A DNA stretch of 64,000 nt. It comes from Phoronis australis. Lineage: Eukaryota; Animalia; Phoronida. This document shows, piece by piece, positions 1 through 61,858 of this stretch (position 1 is its first letter; each line of letters starts with the position of its first letter). A program made the position numbers and the translations under genes. The stretch spans positions 62,001 through 126,000 of the forward strand of contig NMRA01000518.1 of the NCBI GenBank assembly GCA_002633005.1, written 5' to 3'. The notes under the pieces were generated by a model that searched no databases, was not told the origin of the DNA, and saw only the letters and a program-made list of their open reading frames with translations.

Positions 1-3000
1 TGTCGAGTTCGAGCTCTGCTAAATCCAATACTTACATTGATTTGAGATCTTTCCGTAATCAAGACACATCTAAGACTTTACCATGTATTAAAAGGGGGAC
101 CTCAGTTGAGAAAGAGTTGCCAAAAACAACTTCGAAAAGAAAACCCAATGAAACAACCATTGTACCTATGCCTTCTACCCAACTGTCAGTCACATCTGAA
201 AAGCCAGGTAGCACGGTTTCCAAGTCATATAAAGAGACTGATCTGTTAACAACTGTTTCTAGTGATATTATGCACACCAATCATACTGCACACGTGCCTG
301 ATACCACTGCACATGACACTAGGACTACTGCACAAATGCCTGATACCACTGCACATGACACTGGGACTACTTCACATGTGCCTGATACCACTACACATGA
401 CACTGGGACTACTTCACATGTGCCTGATACCACTACACATGACACTGGGACTACTTCACATGTGCCTGATACCACTGCACATGACACTGAGACTACTTCA
501 CACATGCCTGATACCACTACACATGACACTGGGACTACTTCACATGTGCCTGATACCACTACACATGACACTGGGACTACTTCACANCGTCGGGTGTACC
601 ACATGACACAATGTCTACGACATCAGTCGTAATGACCACAGTGAGCTCGCAAAGCTCAAAGTTAACAACTTCTCAGGCAGATGGTATTATGTCTACCAAA
701 TTAATGGACTTGCCCACTACAATTGACTCATTGGAAGTTGATGGCAGTGGGGATGTAGATGTGACAGGCGATGTAGTGAGTACAACAACAACTGATGGGG
801 TTGAACTTACTACTGATGATTCAACATTAGACAATGTCACTGCTACCACAGTACCGATAACTTCAGGCGATACTGCAACTTTGAAGACTACTGGTGAGTC
901 AGATAGTTCTACAGATTCACCTGCCACAACTCTCGATGGGAAACTGTCTGTAACAACAGCATCATTTTCTGAGGACTCATCTGTTAGTTCTACAATGCAA
1001 ACGGATCTGCCAGTTAGATCATCAACACCAGTGAAAGATAGTACTACTTCCTCAGACATGAAACTAACGACAGCCAAACAAGTTTCAGATGATTCTAAAT
1101 TGGATAATCTGATTGTTGTTACAACAGTTAAGCCTCTAAGTGAAGTCTCCACTTTGGCAACAGAAGACCTTGCTGTCACTACAAAATTGTTTTCCACAAC
1201 TTCTGATGCTGTAACTGACAAAAGTGTAACGACCTCAGATATGGGAAACACCACCATGAAACCTAGTTCTAGCAGCGAATCGGCACTGCCTGATGTGACT
1301 ACTAACAATGTTCCCGCGTCAAAGGAACTACCCACTGGTGTCTCTAGGACAGCTACAGTTATTACACAAACTAAAACACCATATTTGTCTACTGTTGCAA
1401 CAGATGATTCAGTTTCTACACCAGGTGTTGAGACAACGGGGGTAACACGTGACAAGATGACTACAAAGTCAGATGTAAAGACCTCAGTGAGCTCGCAAAG
1501 CGCAAAAACAACTCAGCCACATGACACGTCTACCAAATCAATAGACTTGTCCACTGCAACATTAGACAAACTTACTGATACCGCAACACCAACAACTTCC
1601 GAGTCGACTGTTGATTTACAAGCTTCTACTGACTCATCTACCACAACTCCTCATCAAAATATATCTGGAACTACAGGCTCATTTTCTCAGGCATCTTCTG
1701 TTGCTTCGGATGTGCAAACGGATTTGCCTGTGATGTCATCAACAGCTATTAGGGACACTGTTACTCCCTCAGACATGACACAAACTACATCCAAACAATT
1801 AACTGAAGATGTTAAATCAGACAATCTTATCGCTGCTACTACAGCCAAATCATTAAGTGAATTGTCTACTTTAGCAAAAGAAGATATTGTTGCCACTACG
1901 AAATCTTTTGACACAATTTCTGATTCTGTAACCGACAAAAATGCAACAAAGTTAGGTATTGGAACCACCACTNCAAAATCTTTTGACACAACTTCTGATT
2001 CTGTAACCGACAAAAATGCAACAAAGTTAGGTATTGGAACCACCACTTTGGAACCTCATAGTTCTAGCAGTGAATCAACATCGCGTGATGTGACCACTAA
2101 GGAGGGTCCAATGACAAAGGAAGTGCCTACTGATATCTCTAAGCGTACTACAGTGGGTACACAATCTCAAGCGCCATATCTGTCTTCTTTTGCAACTGAA
2201 GAGTCTCTTTCTTCACCAGTTGCTGAAACGTCGGGTGTACCACATGACACAATGTCTACGACATCAGTCGTAATGACCACAGTGAGCTCGCAAAGCTCAA
2301 AGTTAACAACTTCTCAGGCGGATGGCATTATGTCTACCAAATTAATGGACTTGCCCACTACAATTGACTCATTGGAAGTTGATGGCAGTGGGGATGTAGA
2401 TGTGACAGGCGATGTAGTGAGTACAACAACAACTGATGGGGTTGAACTTACTACTGATGATTCAACGTTAGACAATGTCACTGCTACCACAGTACCGATA
2501 ACTTCAGGCGATACTGCAACTTTGAAGACTACTGGTGAGTCAGANTACCGATAACTTTAGGCGATACTGCAACTTTGAAGACTACTGGTGAGTCAGATAG
2601 TTCTACAGATTCACCTGCCACAACTCTCGATGAGAAACTGCCTGTAACAACAGCATCATTTTCTGAGGACTCATCTGTTAGTTCTACAATGCAAACGGAT
2701 CTGCCAGTTAGATCATCAACACCTGTTAAAGATAGTACTACTCCCTCAGATATGAAACTAACAACAGCCAAACAAGTTTCAGATGATTCTAAATTGGATA
2801 AACTTATTGTTGTTACAACAGTTAAGCCTCTAAGTGAGGTCTCGACTTTGGCAACAGAAGACCTTGCTGTCACTACAAAATTGTTTGCCACAACTTCTGA
2901 TGCTGTAGCTGACAAAAGTGTAACAACCTCAGATATGGGAAGCACCACCATGAAACCTAGTTCTAGCAGTGAATCAGCATTGCCTGATGTGACTACTAAC

Positions 3001-6000
3001 AACGTTCCCATGTCAAAGGAAATACCCACTGATGTCTCTAGGACAGCTACAGTTATTACACAAACTAAAACACCATATTTGTCTACTATTGCAACAGATG
3101 ATTCAGTTTCTACACCAGGTGTTGAGACGACGGAGGTAACACATGACAAGATGACTACAAAGTCAGACGTAAAGACCTCAGTGAGCTCGCAAAGCGCAAA
3201 AACAACTTCTCAGCCAGATGACACGTCTACCAAATCAATAGATTTGTCCAATGCAACATTAGACAAACTTACTGATACCGTAACACCAACAACTTCCGAG
3301 TCGACTGTTGATTTACAAGCTTCTACTGACTCATCTACCACAACTCCTCATCAAAATATATCTGGAACTACAGACTTATTTTCTCAGGCATCTTCTGTTG
3401 CTTCGGATGTGCAAACCGATTTGCCTGTGATGTCATCAACAGCTATTATGGACACTGTTATTCCCTCAGACATGACACAAACTACATCCAAACAATTAAC
3501 TGAAGATGTTAAATCAGACAATCTAATCGCTGCTACTACAGCCAAATCATTAAGTGAATTGTCTACTTTAGCAACAGAAGATATTGTTGCGACTACAAAA
3601 TCTTTTGGCACAACTTCTGATTCTGTAACCGACAAAAATGCAACAAAGTTAGGTATTGGAACCACCACTTTAGAACCTCATAGTTCTAGCAGTGAATCAG
3701 CATCGCGTGATGTGACCACTAAGGAGGGTCCAATGACAAAGGAAGTGCCTACTGATATCTCTAAGCGTACTACAGTGGGTACACAATCTCAAACGCCATA
3801 TCTGTCTTCTTTTGCAACTGAAGAGTCTCTTTCTACACCAGTTGCTGAAACGTCGGGTGTACCACATGACACAATGTCTACGACATCAGTCGTAATGACC
3901 ACAGTGAGCTCGCAAAGCTCAAAGTTAACAACTTCTCAGGCAGATGGTATTATGTCTACCAAATTAATGGACTTGCCCACTACAATTGACTCATTGGAAG
4001 TTGATGGCAGTGGGGATGTAGATGTGACAGGCGATGTAGTGAGTACAACAACAACTGATGGGGTTGAACTTACTACTGATGATTCAACATTAGACAATGT
4101 CACTGCTACCACAGTACCGATAACTTCAGGCGATACTGCAACTTTGAAGACTACTGGTGAGTCAGATAGTTCTACAGATTCACCTGCCACAACTCTCGAT
4201 GAGAAACTGTCTGTAACAACAGCATCATTTTCTGAGGACTCATCTGTTAGTTCTACAATGCAAACGGATCTGCCAGTTAGATCATCAACACCAGTTAAAG
4301 ATAGTACTACTTCCTCAGACATGAAACTAACAACAGCCAAACAAGTTTCAGATGATTCTAAATTGGATAATCTGATTGTTGTTACAACAGTTAAGCCTCT
4401 AAGTGAGGTCTCGACTTTGGCAACAGAAGACCTTGCTGTCACTACAAAATTGTTTGCCACAACTTCTGATGCTGTAACTGACAAAAGTGTAACGACCTCA
4501 GATATGGGAAGCACCACCACGAAACCTAGTTCTAGCAGCGAATCAGCACTGCCTGATGTGACTACTAACAACGTTCCCATGTCAAAGGAAATACCCACTG
4601 ATGTCTCTAGGACAGCTACAGTTATTACACATACTAAAACACCATATTTGTCTACTGTTGCAACAGATGATTCAGTTTCTACACCAGGTGTTGAGACGAC
4701 GGGGGTAACACGTGACAAGATGACTACAAAGTCAGACGTAAATACCTCAGTGAGCTCGCAAAGCGCAAAAGCAACTTCTCAGCCAGATGACACGTCTACC
4801 AAATCAATAGACTTGTCCACTGCAACATTAGACAAACTTACTGATACCGTAACACCAACAACTTATGAGTCGACTGTTGATTTACAAGCTTCTACTGACT
4901 CATCTACCACAACTCCTCATCAAAATATATCTGGAACTATAAGTTCATTTTCTCATGACCCTTCTGTTGCTGTTGATTTGGAAACTAAGCAGCATGTCAT
5001 GTTGACAACACCAGGTGTAAAAGTTGACATGAAACAAACAACCACTGATGACTTGAAGTCAGACAATCTCATTTCTGCTACAACACCTAGATCTTTTAGT
5101 GAACTGCCCTCTCTTGCAACGAAAGACAGTGCTTCCTCTATAGCATCTGTTGACACAACATCTGGTACTATTTTGGACAAAAGTGTAACTCGCTTAGACA
5201 AAGTGATCAGCACGAAAACTTACAGTGACACCAGAATGTTTACATCACATGATATGACATCTAAAGATGTGTCTGTGGCAAAGGAAATCTCCACTGATAG
5301 CACCGCTGTATTTACCCAATCTGAAAGGCCGTCGCCCACAGAGTTGTTCACCCCTACTGCAGTTAGTGTTGTTACTGAAAATGCGACTATTTCAACCAGC
5401 AGTTTATCACATAATGTTACTAAAACATTAATGAACAAGACCTTACCTCAAATATTGTCTACATTATCTATGGTCACGGACCAGCCTTTACTTAATGCGT
5501 CAACTGGTGTTACATCAGTTAGTGAGTATTTTAACAAAACCTTAGCATTACATTCTGCTTCTACTATGCCTGCTAATACGACTGAGAAAGTTATAACTAA
5601 CCAGGTTACTATGTCGTTTTCAACCACAATTGATGTTGATATGTTGACACAGACAGAATCTCATATTTCAGAGTCTACTATACCGTCAACTACAGAATCT
5701 TACACGGATTCTGAGGACGGCAGCGGAGATGTAGATACTACAACCCCTGAGGTTGTTGTGGATATTACAGGTACATATTTCCCTGAGGTAAAAACCTCTC
5801 TGGCACCAACTTCTGAGCTGTCAAATGTAACCACGCTTTCCAATATTACTTCAACATTCACAGCCGGGCAAGCATCACCTGTCAGCACTTCTCTACCTGC
5901 TTCTGCACATGCTAACGTCACCATTGTTTCAGGTTTGCCTAGTTTAAGTACACCTGTGCACAAGAAAACCACCGTGGAACAGCTTGTTAATGTCACTCCT

Positions 6001-7369
6001 GGTGCTCACTCTAAAATGTCTACGCGTGCTCCCTCTGGAACTATCAGTACATCTTCCTCACGTGTTGTAGATTCACTTGTAGATGGTAGACCTTCCAACA
6101 AATCTGAACCATATGTCACTACCTCTATCCCCATCTCTGCTATTCCATCTAATGCCACCTTGACTGTTGAGCATTCCACGTCACCACCTCCATCATCTAG
6201 TTCTTCTGCACCTAATGTCACTCTTGCACCTGTTGTAAGTTTTACAGATGTTCCTGTCAGGACTTCAACAACTGCAAATGAAAGTCGACAAGACACTGCA
6301 CAAACCTCGAGTGAAAGCTATTTAGTGTCTTCTGAAACTCCTGCCGCTGCTTCAACTAGTTTTGCATTGACTTCATCGCAGATAACTCAGAACGCTTCTT
6401 TTGCTTCCTCTAGCACTAGACCAATCAGCACAGAACTGCACACAACAGTTGCACAACCTGCTGCTACAGGATCCACACCTCCCACCCTTTCTTCCACCTT
6501 ACGCACATCACAGACATCCCATGCTTACTTTACAAATGGCTCAACTGATATTAGCTACGTGACAACTGCAATGAGGGTTGACGTAACATCTAATGATACT
6601 GAGGGATCTACAACTACAAGTCCATCTGCTGCAAGTATGAATGTAACAATTAAAAGTTCAGCGACTTCTGCCACTCTTAAAGCTAGTACTGTTACCACAC
6701 AGATGTCTACGACTGTGTCAGATGATACCATGATAAACGCTACTCAGTCAGATCGTGGCGCTCAAAGTACCTCTGGCAGGACAGTTGTCCCAGCATCAAC
6801 AACAACAGCTGTGGCAGGTGTCACCTTGTTCAACGCTACGCAGATGGAAATGAATGCAACAAAACCGGTAACAGTTGCTACCACTCAGGGGATGTTAAGT
6901 GTAACAGATGACATGGTGAATGCTACTCATCTGGTTGATAATGAAACGGATTCTTTTGTCACAGACAAAACCACAGTTTCTGTAACTGCTCGTCCTATCA
7001 GTACCACTCAGACAGTGTTGACTGTGACAGAAGGCTCAGGGAATGCTACTCAGTTGGTTAACATTGCTCAACTGGTGGAGAATGGTACAGTTACTGCGCC
7101 GATAGAGAATGGGACAGATGCCACCACTGAGAGAACTACATTATCCAAGGCGAGTGTGGGAACTACATTGCCTAGTGACGCCATGGCGAATGCTACTCAG
7201 GCAGTTACGAATGGAACAAGTTCACCTGCTATGGCCAATCAAACTGAGATGGGTGTCCCAACCAGTGTAGAGGTTGATGCCGTTCATTCCACCACAACTG
7301 TGGCCCCTGTCACTGACCTGACTGTTTTAAGCACGCTTGCACCAGAACTAACCACTGATACAGCTACTG
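1..7369 (+). CDS. Giant Ser/Thr-rich mucin/proteoglycan-like exon (5'-partial)
   Basis: Open from position 3. Frame changes occur only at N joins 587 and 2545. Donor ACTG|GTCAGT at 7369 is phase 1. Contains DGSGD motifs and many NxS/T sequons. Confidence 0.85.
285..586 (+). repeat. Coding 42-nt tandem repeat (HVPDTTTHDTGTTS), about 7 copies, cut by N
   Basis: Unit cacatgtgcctgataccactacacatgacactgggactactt visible directly. Confidence 0.95.
588..4950 (+). repeat. Coding tandem repeat of about 1.57 kb (about 523 aa), about 2.7 copies
   Basis: cgtcgggtgtaccacatgacacaatg recurs at 588, 2229 and 3851. Spacing is about 1569 nt after removing short overlaps duplicated at the N joins. Confidence 0.85.
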
Positions 7370-7624: not shown

Positions 7625-8902
7625 ATTCTGGCATTACATCAACAAAACCAGCAACGCCAACTCCTGGCAGATGTGCTCAAACTGAGTTTGGTTGTTGCCC
7701 AGATGGCATAAGTGCAAAGGCTGGTCCCACAACAGAGGGGTGTTTGGATTACATCATTATTGATGACTGTAATATCACACTGTGGGGCTGCTGCCCCGGA
7801 ACTAACATTACTGCTGATGGGCCAAATCAAGAAGGATGTGATGAAATCATAGCTGAACTAGGATGCACAATCAGTCCTCATGGCTGTTGTCCTGATGGTG
7901 TGAGACCAGCTGATGGTCCAAGTGGCGAGGGGTGCTGTCAAAGTGCTGAGTTTGGTTGTTGCAGTGACAACATTACCATTTCTGAAGGCCCTAATCAGGA
8001 AGGGTGTCCAGGCACTGTTGTTAATGATTGTGAGCTATCGGAATTTGGATGCTGTCCTAACTCAAATAAGTCGGCTAAAGGCTTTTATAATGAAGGCTGT
8101 GAGGACAGTGTGGTGTCCTGTGAGGAGTCCAAGTTTGGTTGTTGTTGGGATGACATCACTGTTGCTGTTGATGAGTACGGCTCGAACTGTCCACCGATAC
8201 CTTGCTATGCATCACGATTTGGTTGTTGTCCTGATAATGAAACTACAGCTGAAGGTCCGGATGGTGAAGGATGCCACCCTATTGTTGGTGGTTGTGCAGG
8301 AACGGAACATGGTTGTTGTCCTGATAATGAAACTGCCGCAACTGGTCCCGATGGTGAAGGATGTTATCCCATTTTTGGTGGCTGTGCTGGAACTCAGCAT
8401 GGTTGTTGTCCTGATAACGAAACTGCCGCAACTGGTCCTGATGGTGAAGGATGTTACCCCATTTTTGGCGGCTGTGCTGGAACTCAACATGGTTGTTGTC
8501 CTGATAATGAAACTGCTGCGGCTGGTCCCGATGGGGAAGGATGTTATCCCATTTTAGGTGGCTGTGCTGGAACTCAGCATGGTTGTTGTCCTGATAACGA
8601 AACTGCTGCGGCTGGTCCTGATGGTGAAGGATGTTATCCCATTTTAGGTGGCTGTGCTGGAACTCAGCATGGTTGTTGTCCTGATAATGAAACTGCTGCG
8701 GCTGGTCCTGATGGTGAAGGATGTTTCCCCATTTTTGGCGGCTGTGCTGGAACTCGACATGGTTGTTGTCCTGATAATGAAACTGCCGCCACTGGACCTG
8801 ATGGTGCAGGATGTTCTCAAAGGGTTGAAACAAACTGTGACACAAGTCCCTATGGGTGTTGTCCTGATGGCATTAATGATGCTCTTGGAACAAAGTTTCA
8901 AG
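7625..8902 (+). CDS. Exon with 14 Cys-rich lagrin-type repeats (CxxxxxGCCPD..GP..GC)
   Basis: Acceptor ttatag|AT and donor CAAG|GTATTC, phase 1-1, inside ORF 7552-8937. Confidence 0.92.
8221..8815 (+). repeat. Coding 90-nt tandem repeat (GCCPDNETAATGPDGEGCYPIFGGCAGTQH), about 6.5 copies
   Basis: ggttgttgtcctgataa recurs every 90 nt from 8221 to 8761. Confidence 0.95.
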
Positions 8903-17422: not shown

Positions 17423-17957
17423 ATGGAGAACTTGCCTCGGTTATTCACATTTATAGTGATTGTCTGCATATGTTTTCCACGACTTTCACACTGTTGGTGG
17501 TTTTTGGGTGGTGATGAAGATCCAACCACAACACTCCAGCCCTTGCCGGAAAGGAAAACTCCAGGAGTCATTACGGAATTTAAGAAAATCAGCTCAACCA
17601 GTGTAAGGACTACAATCAGTAGTACGCCGAGTACTCTAAGTACTAAAACTACAACTCCTAGTACTACCACTGGTAGTACAGCAACTCATAGTAGTACAAT
17701 TACTAGTAGGCCTACTACACGTCCTAGAACTAGGCCTACGCCACATCCTAGAACTAGTCCCACTGCGCGTCCTAGAACTAGGCCTTCTACAACTGCTAGA
17801 AAGACCAAACCAACAGTGGCACCAACGACCAGACCAACTAGTGAGCCTGTCACAGGAAGGCCTAAAGCACCAACACCTTGGTTTGTACACAGCACGCGAC
17901 CACTCATAGGATCTATGCTTACCATGCCTGACATGATATTTATTCCTATGAATTCAG
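17423..17957 (+). CDS. Putative alternative first-exon extension: signal peptide plus Thr/Pro/Arg stalk, in frame with K3
   Basis: ATG in strong context (gtgATGG). MENLPRLFTFIVIVCICFPRLSHC is hydrophobic. About 178 stop-free codons lead into K3. Confidence 0.7.
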
Positions 17958-18134
17958 ATGTGTGCAGCCTGCCAAAAACTGAAGGTCCATGCCGAGGTTC
18001 CTTTGTACGCTGGTTTTACGACCAAGCCACTGCCAGTTGCAAGCAGTTCATTTATGGCGGGTGTAAGGGCAACCTAAACCAGTTTCAAACAAAGGAGGAG
18101 TGCTCGAAAAAATGTGTGAAGGTCGATGCTAAAG
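17958..18134 (+). CDS. Kunitz exon K3 (P1 Arg)
   Basis: CSLPKTEGPCRGSFVRWFYD..FIYGGCKGN; aattcag|AT and AAAG|GTAAGA. Confidence 0.93.
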
Positions 18135-41329: not shown

Positions 41330-41430
41330 GTATGTAACTATAGTGTTGCTTTCCATTTTTGTTGTCAGTAGCACTTTGGCTTTATTCCTTTTCACTTGTT
41401 TGCTTAATGCTTATCAACTACATGAGTCCT

Positions 41431-42623: not shown

Positions 42624-42650
42624 GTTCAAAGCCAAAGCCACTGAATCTGA
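42624..42650 (+). CDS. Micro-exon F, 27 nt (GSKPKPLNL)
   Basis: tttttttcag acceptor and TGA|GTAAGT donor, phase 1-1. Confidence 0.68.
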
Positions 42651-43621: not shown

Positions 43622-43789
43622 CTATTTGCACCTTGCCAAAAGTTGTGGGTCCATGCGAAGCGTCCATTTCCTCTTGGCACTATGACCAAACATCTGGTTC
43701 CTGTAAATCGTTTTCATATGGTGGTTGTGAAGGCAATGAGAATAGATTCTCTACACTTGAGGACTGCCAGTCAGCATGCCCTGCTACTC
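43622..43789 (+). CDS. Kunitz exon K16 (P1 Glu)
   Basis: ICTLPKVVGPCEASISSWHYD..FSYGGCEGNENRF; tttcag|CT and ACTC|GTAAGC. Confidence 0.92.
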
Positions 43790-45001: not shown

Positions 45002-45274
45002 AGATTTGTCAACTTCGCTATTCGAGAGGCACGTGTCGGGGGTCACAGATCCTCTGGTACTACGAGACGCGTGTCCAGGAGTGCCGTAGGTTTGTCTACA
45101 CTGGATGCGGCGGCAACGCCAATCGCTTTTCCTCAAGGGCTCAGTGTACCCAAGCTTGTATCACGGGCATCATCCCTGATTCACGCAGCACTGCCCCCAC
45201 AGCACGCTCCGTACGTGTTACGCAGCCACCCACAACCACTGTGGCACCATCGTTGTCCCCAGGGGGTGATGCAG
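45002..45274 (+). CDS. Basic atypical Kunitz exon K17 plus stalk
   Basis: CQLRYSRGTCRGSQILWYYETRVQECRRFVYTGCGGN; cacag|AG and GCAG|GTTAGT. Confidence 0.9.
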
Positions 45275-46254: not shown

Positions 46255-46533
46255 TGCTGACTCCGCCAAGTCGGCTGGTCTCGGTTGCTGTCCGTGCCTC
46301 ATCCAGCACTGTCGTGCTCACTTGGGTGCGCAGTAAGGTTGCAAGGGGGTACTACCTAAACTATGGCATTAGGTCGACAGACGAGAACTTCCGTCGCCTG
46401 GACAGCACAAGAAGTGTGTATACCATCAGGAACCTCCGACCGTCGACTCGTTATCTCATCTCACTCTCGGCATTTAATGATGGTGGCACTGGGGAACCTG
46501 TGTTCAAAGTGGCATATACAACGGCAGAAAGAG
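46255..46533 (+). CDS. Fibronectin type III exon 1 (DCC/neogenin FN4-like)
   Basis: FN3 core W..Y..IRNLRPSTRYLISLSAFN; tttcag|TG and AGAG|GTTAGG, phase 1-1. Confidence 0.88.
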
Positions 46534-46539
46534 GTTAGG

Positions 46540-47830
46540 ATGTCTGTTCCTGTGGGTATGCCTGTGTTGAAAGGGTACATAATTATAAGGGTGCATATTG
46601 TCGTTATCTCTGTCCGACATCCAGGGATCTGGCATTCACCTAACATCCGCAACTGTATCTCCTAAATCCCTTAAAGGATCTTTGTAAAATTTAGCAGGTG
46701 TGTTCTTGTGAACATGATGTCCAATAAGAATGACTTTCAGACAAGTGCGGCTACTACTGTGCCATCTTGTGGCAATTTTGTTTATTGTATTTGTTTTAAC
46801 TGACAATTTTGTGTGTCACCAGTGGTAATTTAAGTATTTTGGTTCTTATTTGGCATCCACCTTTTCGTCTGCCAAACTGTTTGAAGGATATGTTGACGAG
46901 AGTATGACTGATGCTGATTTCCAAGTGGATCCAAATACTCCTATAACCCTGATGACCATTTATTTTTGCACCTGCTTCAATATCTATCAAGTTTTGGTGA
47001 AGGATTGTCTACAAATTCATCAGATACGTATCTTGTGTGGAAAGAATATGGCTAAAGTTATTTTTGGACAAATCTGACTGCTACTCTGTCACCTACTGGC
47101 ACTTTTATTTTTTTGAACCTGCATAGTTATCCATTTAGTTCTTAAAATATTGTCATGGAATTTTGATGCTAAGTGTTTCCGTTAAATAAATGAAAAATTG
47201 AGACTACAGCTTTCATTGACTCGTGTATGGATCCGACTGCTATTGTGCTCCCTTTTCTCAATTTGATCTTTTTGTATCAGCTTCCGTTCCTGAAACTTCC
47301 AAATCCCTTGGAGGAACTTGGTCGATGTGTTTATATAAAGAAGAAGGGAGCATATGATTGCAGCATGTTCTGGGCTCCCCTAGCGACAATTCTGGTGTTA
47401 TGGTTCTGTTAATGCATCCGTCTTTCTATTTGCCTAATGGTTTGAAGAAGCATTGCAAAATTTGACATGTGTGTTTCTACTGACCTAAACCTGACTGATG
47501 TTGTTTTTTTCCATAATTTGGCCAACTATGACACACCCTAACGGGAGTTTCATTTGTTTGAGTTTGCCCCAATATCTAGTTAGTGTTATGAAGCATCTTC
47601 ATGGGAGGGAGGTTGCAAGCAAGGTTTTATGTGGGAGAGGACAACACTAGCCCATTTTTATACAGTTTTGGCTTAAACTGTGCCCCCTTGTGGCAATTTT
47701 TAGTACAGTATTCACTTCTGACATACACAACCCTACCTGTCGATTCCTTTGGTTAAGGAGTTTCTATTAAGGTGAGGTGGCTGGTGGGGTCATTGGATGT
47801 ATTTGACAGCTGCAATGCCACCTAGTGATT
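46540..47830. repeat. Degenerate interspersed repeat region related to 62850-64000
   Basis: Shared motifs gcc...gtggcaatttt, ggcaggtgtgtt/agcaggtgtgtt and gtttctattaaggt. Confidence 0.5.
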
Positions 47831-48139
47831 ATTGACTAGGATTGCATTTGCCAGTAAGTACTGCACCTCTTTCACCAGTTTTGCTCACTCTTGTTCGTTG
47901 AAATGTTTGAGAATGAGCACACATGGGGGTGTATTAACGCCGTGTGTTGCTCTTGCTTAATTACGAAACTAATGAATGTAAGTTAGTTGAATATTCGTTA
48001 TCTAGTATTAATGTTTTCAAGAAGTTATCTGTGAAATATATTGGCCACAACTGAGGTATTTTTGCAAGATTGTTTGGTTTTAACTTGACGGCTTTTCAGG
48101 TTGGCTGTAATTTTTATTCCTGTGTTATTACGGTTTCAG

Positions 48140-48460
48140 TTGTCCTTACCAAACCCCTGGACCCCCCTGTGTCCGTTCAAGTGACCGACATCACTGACAC
48201 ATCAGTTGTGGTCTCATGGGTAGATATCAGTCTTGGTTCACGCCAGCAACTGTTGCCGGGCAGAACCTACGATGTACGCTACATAAAGAGCCGTGAACTA
48301 GGAAGAAACATCAATTATGTTTCTGTCAACTCAGATCAGCTTAGTGCAAAGATCGAAAACCTGGAGCCAGGAACTAGCTATGACTTCTCTGCGAGAGTTA
48401 TTGAGGCTGGAAGAAAGAGCATATGGAGTCTGTCGACCTCAGTGAAGACAACGGAGTCAG
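48140..48460 (+). CDS. Fibronectin type III exon 2 (DCC/neogenin FN5-like)
   Basis: PPVSVQV..VVVSW..YDVRY..IENLEPGTSYDFS..WSL; tttcag|TT and TCAG|GTTTGT. Confidence 0.9.
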
Positions 48461-48947: not shown

Positions 48948-48968
48948 AGTCCATTTCTAAAGGAGTTG
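48948..48968 (+). CDS. Micro-exon G, 21 nt (ESISKGV)
   Basis: Long pyrimidine tract ending tttacag and TTG|GTAAGC donor. Confidence 0.7.
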
Positions 48969-49460: not shown

Positions 49461-49628
49461 ACATTTGTGCTCTTCCAAAGAAGGTGGGCCCTTGTTTTGC
49501 CAACATCCCACGATGGTACTATGACCAGAATGAAGGCCGTTGCATTCAGTTTGGTTATGGAGGCTGTGCTGGCAATAATAACCGATTTGCTACAGAGGCT
49601 GAGTGTCTGCGTTCCTGTCCAGCGAAAG
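49461..49628 (+). CDS. Kunitz exon K18 (P1 Phe)
   Basis: Hand translation DICALPKKVGPCFANIPRWYYDQNEGRCIQFGYGGCAGNNNRF; cgtag|AC and AAAG|GTAGGT. Confidence 0.93.
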
Positions 49629-50805: not shown

Positions 50806-51558
50806 CCATTTGTAGTTTGCGGTATTCACGTGGCACATGCAGTAAACTTCAGATCATGTGGTACTACGATTTGTCCGCACGAAGCTGCCGACGGTTCGTC
50901 TACACCGGATGTGAAGGCAATGCCAACCGATTTACCTCTAGATATCACTGTGCACGCACGTGTGCTCGGTCACAAGACTCTGATGTCGGAACATCTCGAC
51001 TAGGATCACTAGTTGTCTCTCTGTCCAATACCAATCGCCGGCGTCGTTCCATTGCTGCTCTGTTCCGTGCCCTTATGAGTAGGAGGAAGTCTCTTTATGA
51101 TGACTTAAAGACTGCGTCTACTCATGAAGATAACGTCAGCAATCAGGCACCATCTACACTCGTGTCTTTGAAATCTATGGGCGATAGCTCCTCCCGATTG
51201 TTTAACGTGATGACATCAAAACAAGTCAACAGAAACAATTATGATCCTCCAGCTTACAGTGTGTCCTTGCGCCGCTTACTGTCTGTATCTGTGAATGAAA
51301 CTCAGGATGGTGATAGTATAGAAGATGAAATGACGTCAGCTAAGAATACCACCAAGTCTGCTCCTGATGGGGAAACAGTCTCATTGTTGCCTGGAAAAGA
51401 ATTGTATAACAACAACAGCAAAAGAATCGAGAACAAATCTTTGTCTATGGTCACATCGATGAATCGCTTTGGTAACCATAACAACAGCACAGTTGCACCT
51501 CCTGCACATATCCTGCTCCTTAATGGCACTAACCTAACAAGTACCACTGGTAGCAATG
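50806..51558 (+). CDS. Basic atypical Kunitz exon K19 plus long extension with RRRR site
   Basis: CSLRYSRGTCSKLQIMWYYD..CRRFVYTGCEGN; cacag|CC and AATG|GTAAGT, 753 nt in frame. Confidence 0.82.
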
Positions 51559-51841: not shown

Positions 51842-52012
51842 ATTCCTGTCCTGAGGTGTGCATAGCATTGTATGACCCAGTATGTGCCAGCAATGGCAGG
51901 ACGTACTCCAATGAGTGCCAAATGAAAGTAGAGGCTTGTAAGACAAAAACCAACCTGAAGGTAGTAGCCAAGGGACAGTGTCCACAGACCACCACTACCG
52001 CTGGTCCTCGAG
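51842..52012 (+). CDS. Kazal exon 1 (P1 Ala)
   Basis: CPEVCIALYDPVCASNGRTYSNECQM..AC..GQC; ttacag|AT and CGAG|GTAATT. Confidence 0.92.
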
Positions 52013-53250
52013 GTAATTTTTCAAGAGTTGTTAGAAATACTGGGTTGTATTCGCTGGGCTGTGTCTTGTGAATTAGGCAAGATCATGGAAGGTCATGCTG
52101 GTGTGACGCATCGTATTTCTATATCTTGATAAGTGAACACATGACTGCTAAAATGGCCGCCACAGATAACAATGAGAAACGGCTGTTCAGAATGTTTAGA
52201 ATTAAGGTCTTAACATGAGCAGTGCTCATTCTGCTAAAACCTCACTAATTTCTGACAATAATTATTGTCCGAATAGGAAAGCGTGTGACCTAGTTTTGTA
52301 AATCGTGTCTATCATTGATGTCAGGAAGGCAAAGAATTTCAGATCACGCATCCACGGGTATTTGTCCAGTTCATCAAACCCACAGCACAGCAGTAATATT
52401 CGTTGGTTCTGGAAGGACGAATAGAATAATGCACTTGAGAAAAACTTGTAAAGAGTTATACAACAACAAATAACTTGTGAAACTCCAGTGGCACGAAAAC
52501 AAGGCAGCAAACGTGTCTGACTGATGTTTATGGCTTTGTGGGTTGGTACTACGCTGTGTAATGCGTTAAGGCCCTATTGCCTTTTATGGTCAAAAGCTCC
52601 TGACATTGTTATGTATTTTCAAATATTGTCTAATGGCAGCTGTGGTACACAGGTTATAAATGGTAAAGTACTACTCAGGTACTGCGTGTTGTTTATGAAA
52701 AAGTGAGAAAATTAAAAATTCACTCGTCTGTCACAATGTGTCTGAAATTGATGGGATTTTCCCTTCCTCTTGCCCATGTCATCTGGCGCCTAAACCAAAC
52801 TGTGGTTGGCTTTACTATTTACAGATTTTGATGAAACAATAAATGTTGCATGAAATGGAGATGAAGTAAATTCGAAAACTGTAATTGCATTTAATATTAA
52901 TGTCAAACAAAATTTGATGTTGTTGATACCATTGTTTTACTGCGAATGTGTTATTCATTTTTTCTAAATTTCACAAAACATATATGGTCACATGACCCAG
53001 TTAATGGCAGATTGGTATCAAGTCAAAACGAAATTAAGTTCAAAAGGTTTTTTACATTCATAAAATATATACTTTTACTGTCGGGGTTAAAATCAATACT
53101 TTTGCAGATATTATGCACAGACTTGTCAATAAGGCCCTACACAACCTTAACTCGAAAAAATTCTTTTCTGATGTCATCTCTCTCAATTGATTTCAAATAG
53201 TGTTACCAACAAAACCAGCTGTAACTCGGCTCATGTTTGTTTTCTTGCAG

Positions 53251-53427
53251 ATGACTGCCCCCAGGTTTGCACCCTGATCTACGTCCCAGTTTGTGCCAGC
53301 AATGGTCAGACATATCCCAGTGAGTGTGCGATGAAGAAGGCTGCATGTGACACGAAAACTGAACTTAGCGTTGTGTCAAAGGGCATATGTCCAGGACCAG
53401 ACACCACCACTCCACAGATTCCTCAAG
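53251..53427 (+). CDS. Kazal exon 2 (P1 Leu)
   Basis: CPQVCTLIYVPVCASNGQTYPSECAM; tgcag|AT and CAAG|GTAACT. Confidence 0.92.
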
Positions 53428-53508
53428 GTAACTTTTGATTTTCGCATCCCATTGAACTTTCATAATCGAGAATTGTCCTGAGTGATATTTGGCTGAAGAA
53501 CTTTTTAT

Positions 53509-53648
53509 ATCCTGGTTTGCACCCCAATGTGTGCCAACAATGAACAGACATACCCCAGCGAATGTGCCATGAAGGTTGCTGGCTGAAAGATCCACTGAAC
53601 TGAAGGTTATGTCCAAAGGCAAATGTCCAGAAACTACCACTCCCCAAG
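53509..53648 (+). pseudogene. Dead Kazal pseudo-exon (copy of the 61224 exon type)
   Basis: TGT changed to TGA, a frameshifting deletion, lost 5' end, and the donor gtaggggtttg deleted. Confidence 0.85.
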
Positions 53649-53803
53649 GCATAATCTAACCTAAAATGGCCAGCTTGTTTTTGAAACCTGATTATTACAA
53701 CTGACCCTGTCTTGTCTTATTTGTTTCTTCGATTTCCCATAATGCACTGTAAATTTCTGTTGTTGTTTTAATATGTTTAACCACTAGCCTTCATTACTTG
53801 CAG

Positions 53804-53845
53804 TTACAACAATAGTGCCAACTAAACCTGGTGTCACGGGACTAG
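53804..53845 (+). CDS. Micro-exon H, 42 nt (VTTIVPTKPGVTGL)
   Basis: ttgcag acceptor and TAG|GTAAGT donor. Confidence 0.8.
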
Positions 53846-54626
53846 GTAAGTAATAGTTAAAATTATTTGAATGTTGCAGTTTTTGTTATTTACTTAAACG
53901 TAGCGTTTTGTATCTGTTCTGTACTGGTACTAGATTCAGTAGTGATACTTAATTTATAAGTAGCATCTCCATTTGTCGTGTCTTGTGTCGCAGAATGTTT
54001 TTCCGTGCCTTGTTTTCCTGATTCAAATTGAAACTAATCTCTGAATCTTGCTAAACACAAAATTCTTTTTGTAAAAGAACAGTGTAGAACTCCTAAATTG
54101 TTACTTTAAACTCTTGCTGAAACAGCCATGTATCGTGTTTGGATGTGTTTTCTAGTTTTGTGCTTACCGTAATGCAAATTTGGGTGCACAAAATCTTGGC
54201 AAGCTTAGATAACAATTTAAGGTTATCTCAAACCTTATTCACATNGAATCGCTTTGGTAACCATAACAACAGCACAGTTGCACCTCCTGCACATATCCTG
54301 CTCCTTAATGGCACTAACCTAACAAGTACCACTGGTAGCAATGGTAAGTCGGACGTTCTTTTGTCTTCCCATTGTCACAAGGTTGCCTTCATTGTGGCTT
54401 GCTTTGCAATCATTTGCTTCATCTCTAGCTTGGCTAATGTTCATTTCGCACTGATTTCTGTTGCACACCTCACTTGCCATTCTCTGCACCTGTATCTGCT
54501 GGTGACAGAACCTGTATATCTGCACTTCACACGGTCGTCACACTTAACCAACACTGGTGAGACCTTAACTCTATCTCTCCATGTAGCTCCAATGCAGCTG
54601 TTCCAATTCTTATCACTATATTACAG

Positions 54627-54797
54627 ATTCCTGTCCTGAGGTGTGCATAGCATTGTATGACCCAGTATGTGCCAGCAATGGCAGGACGTACTCCAATGAG
54701 TGCCAAATGAAAGTAGAGGCATGTAAGACAAAAACCAACCTGAAGGTAGTAGCCAAGGGACAGTGTCCACAGACCACCACTACCGCTGGTCCTCGAG
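54627..54797 (+). CDS. Kazal exon 1, duplicate or allelic copy
   Basis: Same protein and splice sites as 51842-52012. Confidence 0.6.
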
Positions 54798-55039
54798 GTA
54801 ATTTTTCAAGAGTTGTTAGAAATACTTGGTTGTATTCGCTGGGCTGTGTCTTGTGAGTTAGGCAAGATCATGGAAGGTCATGCTGGTGTGACGCATCGTA
54901 TTTCTATATCTTGATAAGTGAACACATGACTGCTAAAATGGCCGCCACAGATAACAATGAGAAACGGCTGTTCAGAATGTTTAGAATTAAGGTCTTAACA
55001 TCAGCAGTGCTCATTCTGCTGAAACCTCACTAATTTCTG

Positions 55040-55260
55040 ACAATAATGATTGTCCGAATAGGGCGGTCCTGGATTACATAGCGATATAACTCTTCCTTGT
55101 CCCATAGATAAGAAAGCGCGTGACCTAGTTTTGGAAATCGTGTCTATCATTGATGTCAGCAAGGCAAAGAATTTCAGATCATGCATCCACGGATATTTGC
55201 CCAGTTCATCAAACTTTTTCATGTCGGAGTTGCATCCCACAGCACAGCAGTAATATTCGT
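55040..55260 (-). mobile_element. Decayed THAP-like transposon ORF fragment
   Basis: YCCAVGCNSD..KYPWMHDLKFF resembles a THAP zinc-finger start. The copy near 52270-52410 is partly deleted. Confidence 0.35.
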
Positions 55261-56105
55261 TGGTTTTGGAAGGACGAATAGAATAATGCACTTGAGAAAA
55301 ACTTGTAAAGAGTTATACAACAACAAATAACTTGTGAAACTCCAGTGGCACGAAAACAAGGCAGCAAACATGTCTGACTGATGTTTATGGCATTGTGGGT
55401 AGATACTACGCTGTGTAATGCGTTAGGGCCCTATTGCCTTTCATGGTCAAAAGCTCCTGACATTGTTATGTATTTTCAAATATTGTCTAATGGCAGCTGT
55501 GTTACACAGGTTATAAATGGTGAAGTATTACTCGGGTACTGCGTGTTGTTTATGAAAAAGTGAGAAAATAAAAAATCACTCGTCTGTCACAATGTGTCTG
55601 AAATTGATGGGATTTTCCCTTCCTCTTGCCCATGTTATCTGGCGCCTAAACCAAACTGTGGTTGACTTTACTATTTACAGATTTTGATGAAACAATAATG
55701 TTGCATGAAATGGAGATGAAGTAAATTTGAAAACTGTAATTGCATTTAATATTAATGTCAAACAAAATTTGATGTTGTTGATACCATTGTTTTACTGTGA
55801 ATGTGTTATTCATTTTTTCTAAATTTTACAAAAGATATATGGTCACATGACCCAGTTAATGGCAGATTGGTATCAAGTCAAAACGAAATTAAGTTCAAAA
55901 GGTTTTTTACATTCATAAAATATATACTTTTACTGTCGGGGTTAAAATCAATACTTTTGCAGATATTATGCGCGGACTTGTCGATAAGGCCCTACACAAC
56001 CTTAACTCGAAAAAATTCTTTTCTGATCTCATCTCTCTCAATTGATTTCAAATAGTGTTACCAACAAAACCAGCTGTAACTCGGCTCATGTTTGCTTTCT
56101 TGCAG

Positions 56106-56282
56106 ATGACTGCCCCCAGGTATGCACCCTGATCTACGCCCCAGTTTGTGCCAGCAATGGTCAGACATATCCCAGTGAGTGTGCGATGAAGAAGACTGCA
56201 TGTGACACGAAAACTGAACTTAGCGTTGTGTCAAAGGGCACATGTCCAGAACTAGACACCACCACTCCACAGATTCCTCAAG
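56106..56282 (+). CDS. Kazal exon 2, duplicate or allelic copy
   Basis: CTLIYAPVCASNG; five amino-acid differences from 53251-53427. Confidence 0.6.
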
Positions 56283-56361
56283 GTAACTTTTGATTTTCAC
56301 ATCCCATTGAACTTTTATAATTGAGAATTGTCCTGAGTGATATTTGCCTGAAGAACGTTTT

Positions 56362-56501
56362 ATCCTGGTTTACACCCCAATGTGTGCCAACAATGGACAG
56401 ACATACCCCAGCGAATGTGCCATGAAGATTGCTGGTTGAAAGATCCACTGAACTGAAGGTTATGTCCAAAGGCAAATGTCCAGAAACTACCACTCCCCAA
56501 G
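56362..56501 (+). pseudogene. Dead Kazal pseudo-exon, duplicate or allelic copy
   Basis: Same stop and donor deletion as 53509-53648. Confidence 0.65.
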
Positions 56502-56656
56502 GCATAATCTAACCTAAAGTTGCCAGCTTGTTTTTGAAACCTGACTATTACAACTGACCCTGTCTTGTCTTATTTGTTTCTTCGATTTCCCATAATGCAC
56601 TGTAAATTTCTGTTGTTGTTTTAATATGTTTAACCACTAGCCTTCATTACTTGCAG

Positions 56657-56698
56657 TTACAACAATAGTGCCAACTAAACCTGGTGTCACGGGACTAG
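56657..56698 (+). CDS. Micro-exon H, duplicate or allelic copy
   Basis: Identical to 53804-53845. Confidence 0.6.
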
Positions 56699-58571
56699 GT
56701 AAGTAATAGTTAAAATTATTCGAATGTTGCAGTTTTTGTTATTTACTTAAACGTAGCGTTTTGTATCTGTTCTGTACTGGTACTAGATTCAGTAGTGATA
56801 CTTAATTAATAAGTAGCATCTCCATTTGTCGTGTCTTGTGTCGCAGAATGTTTTTCCGTGCCTTGTTTTCCTGATTCAAATTGAAACTAATCTCTGAATC
56901 TTGCTAAACACAAAATTCTTTTTGTAAAAGAACAGTGTAGAACTCCTAAATTGTTACTTTAAACTCTTGCTGAAACAGCCATGTATCGTGTTTGGATGTG
57001 TTTTCTAGTTTTGTGCTTACCGTAATGCAAATTTGGGTGCACAAAATCTTGGCAAGCTTAGATAACAATTTAAGGTTATCTCAAACCTTATTCACATAAG
57101 TTGGTCATTTTTGCAATATTTCACATGTGCCTAAAAAATACCTTATCTTCATTCTCGGGGAACTTCAAATACAAAATATAATATACCGTGTAGCGAGAAA
57201 AAGAGATTTAGCAGAACCACCTTGGAATCGCACAACCGCTTGTGTATTTGTTTATTACTTATCCGAGGTCAAAGGTTCATCAAAGGTTACAGGGCTGTCA
57301 CTCTAATCGAATCTCCTGCCAGGTACAGAGCAGCTTCATATGTACCCTCAGTATCCTCAGTCCTTTCATTCACCGAGTTGTCATAATATTGAGTCAACAA
57401 GGTGTACTTATGATAGAATGGAAAAGATCCTGAGGAAGTGGTGCGTCTACTTGCATATGACCGTTGAGAATGATTGCTACGATTCACCTCAAGCCTCTGT
57501 GGTCATGAACATGGCAAGTTGTGAAAAGAGAAATCCTCACCCAAATTCCTTAATCCAATAAATAAATTGACATTTCGCTGTTTCGATGTCATGCTAACGA
57601 CATGCTTTAACCACCGACACGATTTTTGTTATTCATTTCTTACTTGGTGTCGTACTCCCGGAACACATGACGTGTACAGACTGTGTATATCATTGAACTG
57701 CGACTTACTTTTAAGTAGGTCAAACAACAATAACAGTTGATCCCACCTCGTGGGTGGGGACGGTACGCTTTAATGATAATTAAGTTAATTACGCACTGCA
57801 AATTCAGTTGACATTGCTATCGAATGTTGAAATAGCTAACACGGTTATGGCATGTATAGGTTATATTTACCACAAGTTTTCACCGAATAGTTAACTGAAG
57901 ACTTTGAGATTTTCACTCATCCCACTTTCATTGGCTTTTTCTCGGCTTTGGCAAATCAACGTTGTTTGAACTTAGGAACACGAGTTCTCAAAAATGGCTT
58001 GGTGGATTTTGCTGAAACTTTCCAAGCTCAATATTTATTCATCAATCTCAAAAACACTGTTAGGATTTTCGATATAAAGGACTAGTTTTTGCATAATATA
58101 ACAAAGAGATCATGACTTCTATTTTTTACATAAATACCCTATGTTTTGCGAGTTGATTTGCCCTAGAAACCAATTGAAAAAACGAATTGAGAATTCCTAA
58201 CAGAATTTTTGAGGTAACTGGTGAAGTTTTCATTTAAAAAGTTTCATTAAAATCGGCCGATTGGTTATTTTGCTATTAACGTACCTTTCTTAAAAATGAG
58301 ATTTTGACTTAAGAAGGTGTTACATAATAATAATAATGGTACATAAATACAAAACATATTTTTATATTCCCTGATCTTTTTTCTAATTGACAAAGCTTAG
58401 TTTTTTGATATACGAGTTAGAATAGAGGCCACTAATTAAAATAAGGTCGAGATAACCTTAATTGGTGGGAGAGCTCTGTTCCCTTGGGAGGACACATTAG
58501 TATTATAACTATACATTGCTGAATAAATTGACAAAGCCTATAATACTGCATCATCTCACTTATATTTTCAG

Positions 58572-58739
58572 ATATTTGTGCACTACCCAAAGTTGTGGGC
58601 CCATGTCGTGCTACCATCAAGTCTTGGTACTACAACAAAGACAAAGGAGCATGTCTTCCTTTCACTTATGGCGGCTGTGACGGCAATGAAAATAGATTCT
58701 TTTCTATTGAGGCTTGTGAAGCTGCTTGCCCAGTAAATG
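58572..58739 (+). CDS. Kunitz exon K20 (P1 Arg)
   Basis: Hand translation DICALPKVVGPCRATIKSWYYNKDKGACLPFTYGGCDGNENRF; tttcag|AT and AATG|GTATGT. Confidence 0.93.
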
Positions 58740-59371
58740 GTATGTAGTTAGTACCTTCTCACCCTACTCGTTTTAATGCCAACTTGACCTTAAGTGTAAT
58801 AGTTTCACTCAGGAGTTGAGACACTATTTCACAATTTGTCACAATTAGGCACTTAGTACAGTAAGCCGATGCACGCACAGTTTTGAATTGATGATCTTTA
58901 TCTAACATTCCTTCATCACACCTCGACTAGATTGTCTCTGCTCCATTTTAACACTGACGACAATTCCCATCTGTTTCACTTATATGGATATTATATTTTA
59001 GAGCACTTATCTGGTATTTGTGGCAATTAAATAGATTCAACTGGAGGTTAACTGTTGTGTCATGACCCATTTTGACTCAATTTATTAATAACTTAATGTG
59101 TCATTACCAACTCTGGAAAGCTGCAAGAGTTCTTGTAAGGTCCATCTGGCTAACCAAGCATGTTATGAAAAGCTTGTTGAATGTTTAAAAGTTGCAAGCC
59201 CTCATCTGAGGGTCTTGATCGCTCCTGAAATTAAGTGGATTGATCCAGACCCTTAGAATGAGAGTGGATTCATTTAAGCATCCAATACAGTCAGACTTTC
59301 CAACCCTCTAATATTTTGCACACCTTCCTACTAGCTAGGTGATATTTTAGGCCCGATTTAACATATTGTAG

Positions 59372-59554
59372 ACATCTGTACCCTTCCATCTAACAACGGC
59401 CAGAGCTCAGGCTATGAAATCTTCTGGTATTATGATAAGAACATCAGGCGGTGTCGTCGGTTCATCTTCAGAGGCGTTGGTGGCAATGCCAACAGATTTG
59501 GGAGCAGGGAGAGCTGCTTAAGTGTTTGTGGCAGACGCCCGTCTAAGAAGACTG
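59372..59554 (+). CDS. Two-disulfide basic Kunitz exon K21, absent from ORF track
   Basis: DICTLPSNNGQSSGYEIFWYYDKNIRRCRRFIFRGVGGNANRFGSRESCLSVCGRRPSKKT; tgtag|AC and ACTG|GTTAGT. Confidence 0.88.
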
Positions 59555-60689
59555 GTTAGTGCGACGCTGAATGTATTACTGAACTACATCAAACTGCAAA
59601 CTTAGAACAGTCGTGTAGTTTGATGCTCATATGTCCAATTTAAAGTTGCAGTATACCTTATCTTGCTGCCAAAAACAACAACTTGTACAATGACAATTGG
59701 CTTGCCTCAATTTCCAACTGCTGGTTTATGACCCTTCATAATTGTCCCATTATGTTGCACCCTCAACAGAATTAATGAAGCCGAATACTGGGTGCGGACT
59801 AAATTTCTAGTTGGATTTTTAAAATTCAAAAACCTAACCAAGTGTATTTTTCACAAACTATTCAAATACGCTATTTAAAAACTTTCAGAACCAAAATAAG
59901 AAAATAACCCCAGTGTTTGCAACTGTCTTTATGATGGGCAATTTCAGACCCCCATGGAACAATAACATCAGCTAAAGATGGACAGTTTCGTTGAAGATAG
60001 TGGCAGCTTTTAAGTTATTAAGCAAACCAGTCATGTTGCCCAAACTGGACTGGTCAATGCAGTTTTCTTTTCATACCATGACTTTGATCTTAATTTTGCA
60101 CCTTGGCTACGACCGCTCAATGTTTTGAAAAGTAAGGCTTCACAACCAAGTTAGAAGCCTTTGAAAAATGGGAAAGGTGTAATATCATTTGTCCTATTCT
60201 TGTGTCGCAATTATGTTGGTGGCTTTTACCACATTTTTATTCCTTATCAGTCTTTTAGGAGGGTTATTTAACCATCACGTCTGAAACGATGTAGCAAGTT
60301 TCTTGTTATCTAAAAGATGGTGAATGCTTTTGTTGACTACAAAAATTTAATGTTGATGTAGCTATTAATTATATTTTGTACAGTTAAACATTTTGCATGA
60401 CGTCCAGCCTTTCTTAACACTAGATATCACAAGTTACCCTTATTTTTTACTAATCATTTCATATTTCTACCATTCCTCTTAAGCTGAAATTGTAATCCAT
60501 TTATTTATCCGAAAGAATATTTTTTCTTCACCTTGTAACCAGAACCACTTGTTATCAACAGTTTAAAAGTCGAGTTGATTTTCGTCAATTTGTATAATAT
60601 ATTTATACATATAACTAATTTATGTATGATAGCAAGAAATCCCAGGTTCTACTTTCCTGTGTTTAATCGCATATAATTGCTTTACCTAG

Positions 60690-60800
60690 CATCCCCCCTG
60701 CAGCCAACAACTGCTGCACCGAAATCTGTGAACACCAATACACCAACTTCTAAACAGGCTCCAGTGACCTCGACTGACTTACCTGGGAATGAAGTCAAAG
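60690..60800 (+). CDS. Pro/Thr linker exon, 111 nt
   Basis: ASPLQPTTAAPKSVNTNTPTSKQAPVTSTDLPGNEVK; acctag acceptor and AAAG|GTAAGT donor, phase 1-1. Confidence 0.75.
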
Positions 60801-60932
60801 GTAAGTTCTTGATCAAATACTCTGATTAAAAATAAAGAATTTTTTAATATGTAGCAAAATGGTTTTACAACCACACACATACGCCATCCATTACTGTGAA
60901 TTGTCCCTGTGTTGTTAAGTGTTTCCATATTG

Positions 60933-61858
60933 TTAAAATTTTGCCAGTTAGCGCATAAAAGGTTAAAAAATCAAAGAATGTCAAACCTAAATTAACACGG
61001 GAAATCTTGGACTAAGTTAAACACAGGAACCATGATCTGCTCGTGTGCAAGTATATGTCACTTCCTCCATCTGAGTTGATACTATTTGATTGATATTGAC
61101 ATTAAACAATTTGAAAAGCTGAGCAGGCCAGGGTATAATTCATCAGCTCAAAAGCCAATTGTATCATACTATAAAATGCCTGTAGTTTTAAAAATGTCTA
61201 TCAACACCACTTCTCTCTCATAGACCCCTGCTCTAAAGTCTGCACCCTGATTTACGCCCCTGTGTGTGCCAACAATGGAGAGACATACCCCAATGAATGT
61301 GCTATGAAGGTTGCTGGCTGTAAGACGAAAACTGAACTGAAGGTTGTGTCCAAAGGCAAATGTCCAGAAACTACCACTCCCCAAGGTAGGGGTTTGGCAT
61401 AATTTCTACTTGTTCTTTTACTGAACTTTGCCTAACTTTTAGTCATTTCGTACGTAAAATTATTTAATGCATCTCTCACTTGCACCCTATAAACGTTTCA
61501 TCCCTTTCGGCTTAAGTCACTTTGTCTCCACATCTACACTGCAAAGACCTAATGGGTTTAGATGCTTTGCCGTCTGCAGGAAAGATCTGGTGCATGCCCA
61601 TTCACACCCTTCCTGTAAAGAACTTCCTTATATTCGTTCATGAATGCTAGTAAAGTGATGGGTGGTTGGATTGTTGTGGCGCCGTTGTGTTATTATTTTT
61701 AAAATTTTGCCAGTTAGCGCATAAAAGGTTAAAAAATCAAAGAATGTCAAACCTAAATTAACACGGGAAATCTTGGACTAAGTTAAACACAGGAACTGTG
61801 ATCTGCTCGTGTGCAAGTATATGTCACTTCCTCCATCTGAGTCGATACTATTTGATTG
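60933..61858. repeat. Direct repeats of about 160 nt (60933-61092 and 61699-61858) flanking Kazal exon 3
   Basis: aaaattttgccagttagcgcataaaagg..gatactatttgattg occurs twice, near identical. Confidence 0.92.
61224..61385 (+). CDS. Kazal exon 3 (P1 Leu)
   Basis: Hand translation DPCSKVCTLIYAPVCANNGETYPNECAMKVAGCKTKTELKVVSKGKC; catag|AC and CAAG|GTAGGG. Confidence 0.92.

Follow-up and report, generated by a model that had tools for sequence, protein, structure and literature searches.

Receptors of the DCC/neogenin family comprise four Ig domains, six FN3 domains (FN1 to FN6), a membrane span and a cytoplasmic tail. According to PMC5563286 and PMC8063088, FN4 of DCC binds the LN domain of netrin with high affinity; EGF3 is contacted by FN5, and EGF1-2 by FN5-FN6. 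Residues V848 and M933 of FN5 are described as filling a netrin pocket (PMC13340919), and the FN4 mutations V793G and G805E as abolishing netrin binding (PMC8116049). DCC is also alternatively spliced, through an alternative 60 bp in exon 17 (PMC4930329), so that human DCC-short is without residues 819-838 (PMC5563286). As to the consequences of the short linker between FN4 and FN5, it is reported to have lowered DCC binding (PMC5563286) and, when assayed by AVEXIS, to have removed one of the binding sites (PMC10871540), which I infer to be that of FN5, while PMC4930329 gives comparable netrin affinities for both isoforms and describes continuous netrin chains formed by DCC-short. A link between netrin and the matrix protein papilin is known from C. 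elegans, where, according to a review, guidance of the ALA neuron needs both the netrin pathway and MIG-6/papilin; this link is genetic and does not concern binding.

Here, I show that a papilin-like gene of Phoronis australis carries, within its Kunitz array, two exons specifically of DCC/neogenin FN4 and FN5 type. The window, that is, the whole stretch of 64 kb that was analysed, is animal DNA of 39% GC and is filled with part of one very large plus-strand gene, in which a Ser/Thr-rich region is followed by Cys-rich repeats and then by a long series of Kunitz domains on phase 1-1 exons, with a total of 21 Kunitz motifs, one degenerate copy (22 Kunitz-like in all) and five Kazal exons (Table 1). 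The Cys-rich region retrieves 198 proteins, and the 120 matches listed are mostly named papilin or papilin-like; Cys-rich repeats and then a Kunitz array, the succession that marks a papilin, are both present in the window. An N-terminal TSP1/ADAM-spacer cassette and a C-terminal Ig/PLAC part were not seen within the 64 kb, the gene running off both ends, and the assignment accordingly stops at 'papilin-like'.

Table 1. Features of the papilin-like gene, in window coordinates.
Feature	Position	Strand	Basis or remark
Ser/Thr-rich mucin-like coding region	852..7369	+	bounds approximate; assembly Ns inside
Papilin-type Cys-rich (GCC.DG) repeat region	7630..8898	+	sign of a papilin-like gene
Possible internal first exon: signal-peptide-like ATG start, mucin stalk, Kunitz 3	17423..18134	+	sequence-based
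Kunitz 16 exon	43622..43789	+	exon chain and RNA reads
Exon of Kunitz 17 and a Thr/Pro linker, preceding the FN pair	45002..45274	+	joints 43789-45002, 45274-46255
Exon A: phase 1-1 FN3 of DCC/neogenin FN4 type; net charge +8	46255..46533	+	Pfam, PDB, profiles, tree, RNA acceptor joint
Exon B: phase 1-1 FN3 of DCC/neogenin FN5 type	48140..48460	+	Pfam, PDB, profiles, tree, structure model, stranded read depth
Micro-exon, 21 nt, phase 1-1, between FN5 exon and Kunitz 18	48948..48968	+	joint to 49461, 9 reads
Kunitz 18 exon	49461..49628	+	exon chain and RNA reads
Kunitz 19 exon with long tail holding RRRR run	50806..51558	+	donor site predicted only
Downstream part with five Kazal and additional Kunitz exons	51842..61385	+	possible assembly duplication of one Kazal pair

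Some features of the array deserve mention in their own right. Kunitz 14, 17 and 19 (at 40901, 45002 and 50806) form a distinct, basic subtype, and the degenerate Kunitz exon (59372-59554) is without two of the six cysteines. In the Kazal region, 51461-54244 and 54246-57097 are tandem duplicates, 96-99% identical, each of which contains a pair of Kazal exons together with a linker exon. Between them, at 54245, lies an N of the assembly; the duplication may be a haplotype artefact, and RNA reads show a back-joint 55139-52318 in this region. The possible internal first exon also has an internal acceptor just ahead of Kunitz 3, and a start at 17423 might yield a smaller secreted protein, the FN pair still among its domains. 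The RRRR run after Kunitz 19 is a possible convertase site, at which cleavage would release the Kunitz-FN arm from the Kazal part of the protein.

Two intact phase 1-1 FN3 exons between Kunitz 17 and Kunitz 18 had been claimed by the original prediction, and coordinates, splice ends, frame and motif count all agree with it. Exons A (279 nt) and B (321 nt) are open, divisible by three and bounded by AG/GT ends; joined with their neighbours into the chain of seven exons that leads from Kunitz 16 to Kunitz 19, they are part of 660 codons without a stop, and 17 Kunitz motifs lie upstream of them. Their GC3 (0.55 and 0.51) lies inside the range of the Kunitz exons (0.38-0.57), and no transposon-like terminal repeats were found around them.

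The identity of the two domains is carried by position-specific evidence. Both pass the Pfam fn3 cut-off of 25 (42.4 bits for exon A, 41.7 bits for exon B); in the PDB, 57 sequences match exon A, with neogenin/DCC FN4 constructs in the first six ranks, and 28 match exon B, with neogenin/DCC FN5 constructs in the first eleven. With one profile per FN position of the receptor, six in all, exon A scored 64.5 bits on FN4 against 20.5-28.1 on the others, and exon B 72.6 bits on FN5 against 10.7-30.3. The control for these profiles comprised 126 of 150 representatives, 24 DCC-like ones having been set aside: exon A was outscored on the FN4 profile by 2 of 1712 domain matches and exon B on the FN5 profile by 1 of 1377, all of them from two mollusc proteins (P0022 and P0035) that carry FN4-FN5-FN6 runs, while the best scores from proteins without DCC FN4-FN5-FN6 domains were 46.5 (FN4) and 30.5 (FN5). 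In a tree of 84 domains, exon A falls in the FN4 clade (support 96/93) and exon B in the FN5 clade (100/99). The first matches of a structure model of exon B are neogenin FN5 structures; a single-sequence model of exon A, made with no alignment (pLDDT 79), had no PDB match at E 0.001, its best matches (Z up to 5.0) being unrelated folds, and carries no weight in the assignment. FN4 followed by FN5, the identity and order that had been predicted, is thus upheld by PDB matches, profiles and supported clades alike, the best matches being DCC/neogenin FN4 and FN5 respectively and not generic FN3. Within the receptor architecture, only these two domains have a counterpart in the window, a profile scan of which gave no other DCC FN domain, FN6 included.

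Broader searches returned little that is comparable. The representative search with exon A had its top ranks filled by many-FN3 proteins, and rescoring was therefore done per domain; a single one of its 150 representatives has a Kunitz motif, namely collagen VII. With exon B, a word-indexed search, weak in itself, passed none of 301 candidates among proteins of 187-2000 aa; a metagenome scan gave five weak loci among 240 candidates, at 27-42% identity, which were set aside; and an Atlas search with exon B, as well as with a scallop FN-plus-Kunitz stretch (see below), gave generic FN3 clusters only.

Splicing of the pair into the Kunitz array was assessed with about 18-19% of each of three RNA runs, chosen by species label and mapped at 90% likeness to positions 36500-56000 only. 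The joint 43789-45002 was seen in 8 and 2 reads, and the joint 45274-46255, which connects Kunitz 17 to exon A and had been proposed as a check, was found in 5 reads from 3 starts, as well as in one contig with only 21 letters on the short side; exon A is hence spliced to the Kunitz array on its 5' side. Nine reads join the micro-exon to Kunitz 18 (48968-49461), with a short side of 23 letters that fits either exon B or Kunitz 17 upstream, so that this joint does not settle the inclusion of the FN exons. Neither the junctions 46533-48140 and 48460-48948 nor a skip of the exon pair are among the 15 joints listed of the 26 in the RNA reads. Read depth in the FN bins (0-3.8) is similar to that of the flanking Kunitz bins and comes from one strand only, although in the exon A bin part of it belongs to the intron, around 46652. 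With reads for two of four junctions, and an identity to DCC family members of only about 37%, one might suppose that the exons are generic FN3 or part of another transcript nested in a papilin intron; this is very improbable in view of the position-specific scores, the clades, the joint from Kunitz 17 to exon A and the lack of any further DCC FN domain in the window.

The pair resembles the receptors also in how its two halves are connected. The equivalents of Y809 and V848 span 21 residues, as compared with 20-22 in seven of eight relatives measured, starfish neogenin (32) being the exception; the linker is thus of the short type. The intron between exons A and B splits the 11th codon from the Y809 equivalent, that is, it falls after the 10th residue. 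Two comparisons of long and short neogenins in carp-family fish diverge after exactly 10 residues, and a third, of frog with bird neogenin, after 7 through substitution. The intron therefore corresponds to DCC codon 819, where the long and short isoforms of vertebrates part. Adjacency, order, receptor-like linker and intron position, all judged from sequence, are consistent with the FN pair having been copied as a single genomic piece, intron included, from a gene of the DCC family and inserted into an intron of phase 1. Introns at domain borders are common in FN3 genes, and the intron position accordingly supports a move as a single piece without proving it. Of the original prediction that a receptor module was shuffled into a secreted matrix protein, the shuffling as a unit is supported, with the receptor itself as the probable donor.

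Two kinds of donor have to be considered, a question independent of function. DCC-type FN4-FN5-FN6 domains occur also in proteins that begin in a signal-like manner and for which hydropathy gives no membrane span (P0054, P0299-P0303, P0305 and the Haliotis proteins P0110 and P0157). P0054, P0299-P0303 and P0305, together with P0311, P0140 and P0335, measure about 630-690 aa and consist of DCC-type FN3-FN4-FN5-FN6, with no Ig domain and no membrane span; FN4 being well conserved in this family, they are candidate soluble netrin binders. Further 'neogenin-like' multi-FN3 proteins were found in Patella, Lymnaea, Gigantopelta, Pomacea and Asterias, and some of these apparently secreted proteins may be fragments. 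As observations apart, P0110 and P0157 join a pleiotrophin/midkine C-terminal domain to their FN4-FN5-FN6 repeats, and the Asterias proteins P0007 and P0354 combine multiple FN3, duplicated FN4-type domains and a thyroglobulin-1 domain, with no membrane span seen. DCC-like FN3 domains are present in the secreted vertebrate matrix proteins FNDC1 and ABI3BP as well; no sequence so named came up in the searches.

The sequence comparisons suggest that the donor was probably the receptor. An apparently secreted DCC-like protein with FN4-FN5-FN6 in its place is the less likely source, albeit one with several points in its favour: the best pairwise scores of exon A are to such proteins (167, 160 and 159, against 152 for the best receptor), and exon B is weakly sister to P0110 (86/75). 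Profiles hardly distinguish the two for exon A (64.5 on the receptor profile, 65.5 on the secreted one), whereas exon B scores 75.8 against 63.1, the 12 best summed pair scores are all to receptors, and the pocket and surface residues of FN5 follow the receptors more than the secreted group. In a tree of concatenated FN4 and FN5 (39 rows, seven near-duplicates dropped), the exon pair, on a long branch (1.02), stands outside a nine-member secreted clade, starfish neogenin being its weakly supported neighbour (77/41). By the AU test, three alternative placements are all retained (p 0.31, 0.36 and 0.27), the first of these being a grouping with the nine secreted proteins and the second one with P0110.

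The original prediction had also held that the known papilins lack FN3; not all of them do, for 2 of the 120 listed papilin-like proteins carry fn3 domains. That of the Pinctada papilin is not DCC-specific; residues 749-846 of a papilin-like protein of the scallop Mizuhopecten yessoensis (XP_021340999.1, P0242) form a domain of neogenin FN6 type, with 79.7 bits to neogenin FN6 and 116.6 bits on the FN6 profile, sister to a snail neogenin FN6 (95/88) and found in all 8 cluster members. The scallop insertion is most simply read as a capture separate from that of the P. australis pair. FN4- or FN5-type domains were found in none of the 138 papilin-like proteins scanned (best 26.0 bits), a set confined to proteins of up to about 2100 aa. 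No description of a DCC-type FN4-FN5 pair in a papilin-like Kunitz array was found among the listed titles and abstract openings of a mostly open literature on papilin, netrin and neogenin.

Whether the pair might bind netrin was judged from its contact residues, the DCC numbering being transferred through neogenin and checked against listed residue types. In FN5 (exon B), V848 is V and M933 is L, both pocket positions thus being hydrophobic; L occurs at the latter in 5 of 31 receptors, and generic FN3 rows, about half of which are gapped there, have V, I, L or M in the two columns in 10% and 8% of cases. R884, Y895 and W931 are kept, and H857 is D. In FN4 (exon A), G805 is kept, V793 is L, K797 is S and Y809 is F, while V793 and Y809 are invariant in 31/31 receptors and K797 is basic in 30/31; the G-[YWH]-G-x-G loop present in 27/31 receptors is lost. 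Exon A retains 18 of 29 receptor-conserved columns, as compared with 24-29 in the 31 receptors and 20-27 in 14 non-receptor relatives, and is the most eroded FN4 of the 46 copies compared; exon B retains 21 of 32, near the bottom of the receptor range (18-32) and like divergent receptors. With FN6 absent from the window, an FN5-FN6 netrin site cannot form.

These residues point, tentatively, to a weak, FN5-based netrin tether in the matrix as the best reading of the pair. Exon B would dock the EGF3 pocket through its V and L at the V848 and M933 positions, and exon A, having drifted, would bind the LN domain poorly or not at all; such a combination would make a low-affinity tether or presenter and not a strong decoy. 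The case for netrin binding is weakened on one side, none of the 45 relatives having shed as many receptor-conserved residues as the FN4 copy. The erosion of FN4 and, to a lesser degree, of FN5 (the column counts above), the long branch, the missing FN6, D at H857 and the short linker all count against the tether, as does the absence of 46533-48140 and 48460-48948 from the joints listed.

Much of the same evidence would suit a DCC-family module that no longer binds netrin and serves as a folded, cationic spacer, binding heparan or chondroitin sulfate or another matrix partner. Beside the eroded FN4, the long branch and the missing FN6, this possibility, itself tentative, draws on charge: the +8 of exon A exceeds that of all 45 relatives (maximum +6), and the flanking Kunitz domains 17 (+6) and 19 (+8) are basic too. 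Exon B is neutral, however, charge by itself is no sign of glycan binding, and FN5 keeps hydrophobic residues at both netrin-pocket positions, where they are uncommon in generic FN3. As a best guess, the weak tether is ranked just ahead of the spacer. The strong form of the original prediction, in which both domains bind netrin (FN4 the LN domain, FN5 EGF3) and the protein acts as a decoy or as a cross-linker in the manner of DCC-short, is improbable. The kept G805 and V848, the conservative change of V793, L for M933 and the short linker, which is that of the chain-forming isoform (PMC4930329), would agree with it, but the high-affinity site is that between FN4 and LN (PMC8063088), and it is precisely FN4 that is least conserved of the 46 copies and without its loop motif.

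Along a broader line, papilins may have repeatedly captured ligand-binding FN3 modules of DCC/neogenin, FN4-FN5 here and FN6 in the scallop, and the P. australis protein may anchor netrin directly in the basement membrane; this proposal is more unlikely than likely. If true, a netrin-anchoring papilin fusion would explain in physical terms why papilin and the netrin pathway are genetically linked, and would touch on how netrin is retained on basement membranes and on the defects that papilin mutants cause in netrin-guided axons. With the netrin-binding domain types of the receptor in a papilin, the pair amounts to a two-domain construct that is directly testable. Exon shuffling into matrix proteins is ordinary in itself. 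Whether or not netrin is bound, the presence of distinct DCC-family modules in two papilins, together with several apparently secreted FN4-FN5-FN6 proteins labelled merely 'neogenin-like', indicates that invertebrate matrix proteins have made repeated use of this segment of the receptor.

To place the locus among known systems, collagen VII (P0105) likewise unites FN3 and Kunitz in one matrix protein, yet its FN3 repeats are generic and accompanied by VWA, a collagen helix and a single Kunitz. The apparently secreted 'neogenin-like' proteins (the P0054 group and those of Haliotis, Patella, Lymnaea and Asterias) share the presence of DCC-type FN4/FN5 outside a membrane receptor, but most keep FN6 and a better conserved FN4, and no Kunitz is reported in those scanned. 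With papilin and MIG-6 the gene shares the Ser/Thr-rich region, the Cys-rich repeats and the extended run of Kunitz domains on phase 1-1 exons, and differs in the number of its inhibitor exons, which in the window alone comes to 22 Kunitz-like and 5 Kazal, and in the DCC-type pair. The scallop papilin-like protein has a DCC-family FN3 domain inserted among papilin inhibitor domains as well, although a single one, of FN6 type and sited after WAP-like repeats. Lastly, FN4-FN5 of DCC, neogenin, Frazzled and UNC-40 (PDB 4PLO, 4PLN, 4URT and 7NDG) agree with the pair in domain type, order, short linker and intron position, and in V848, G805, R884, Y895 and W931; unlike in these receptors, the window holds no Ig, FN1-3, FN6, membrane or cytoplasmic part, the FN4 loop motif is lost, and the pair is embedded between Kunitz domains.
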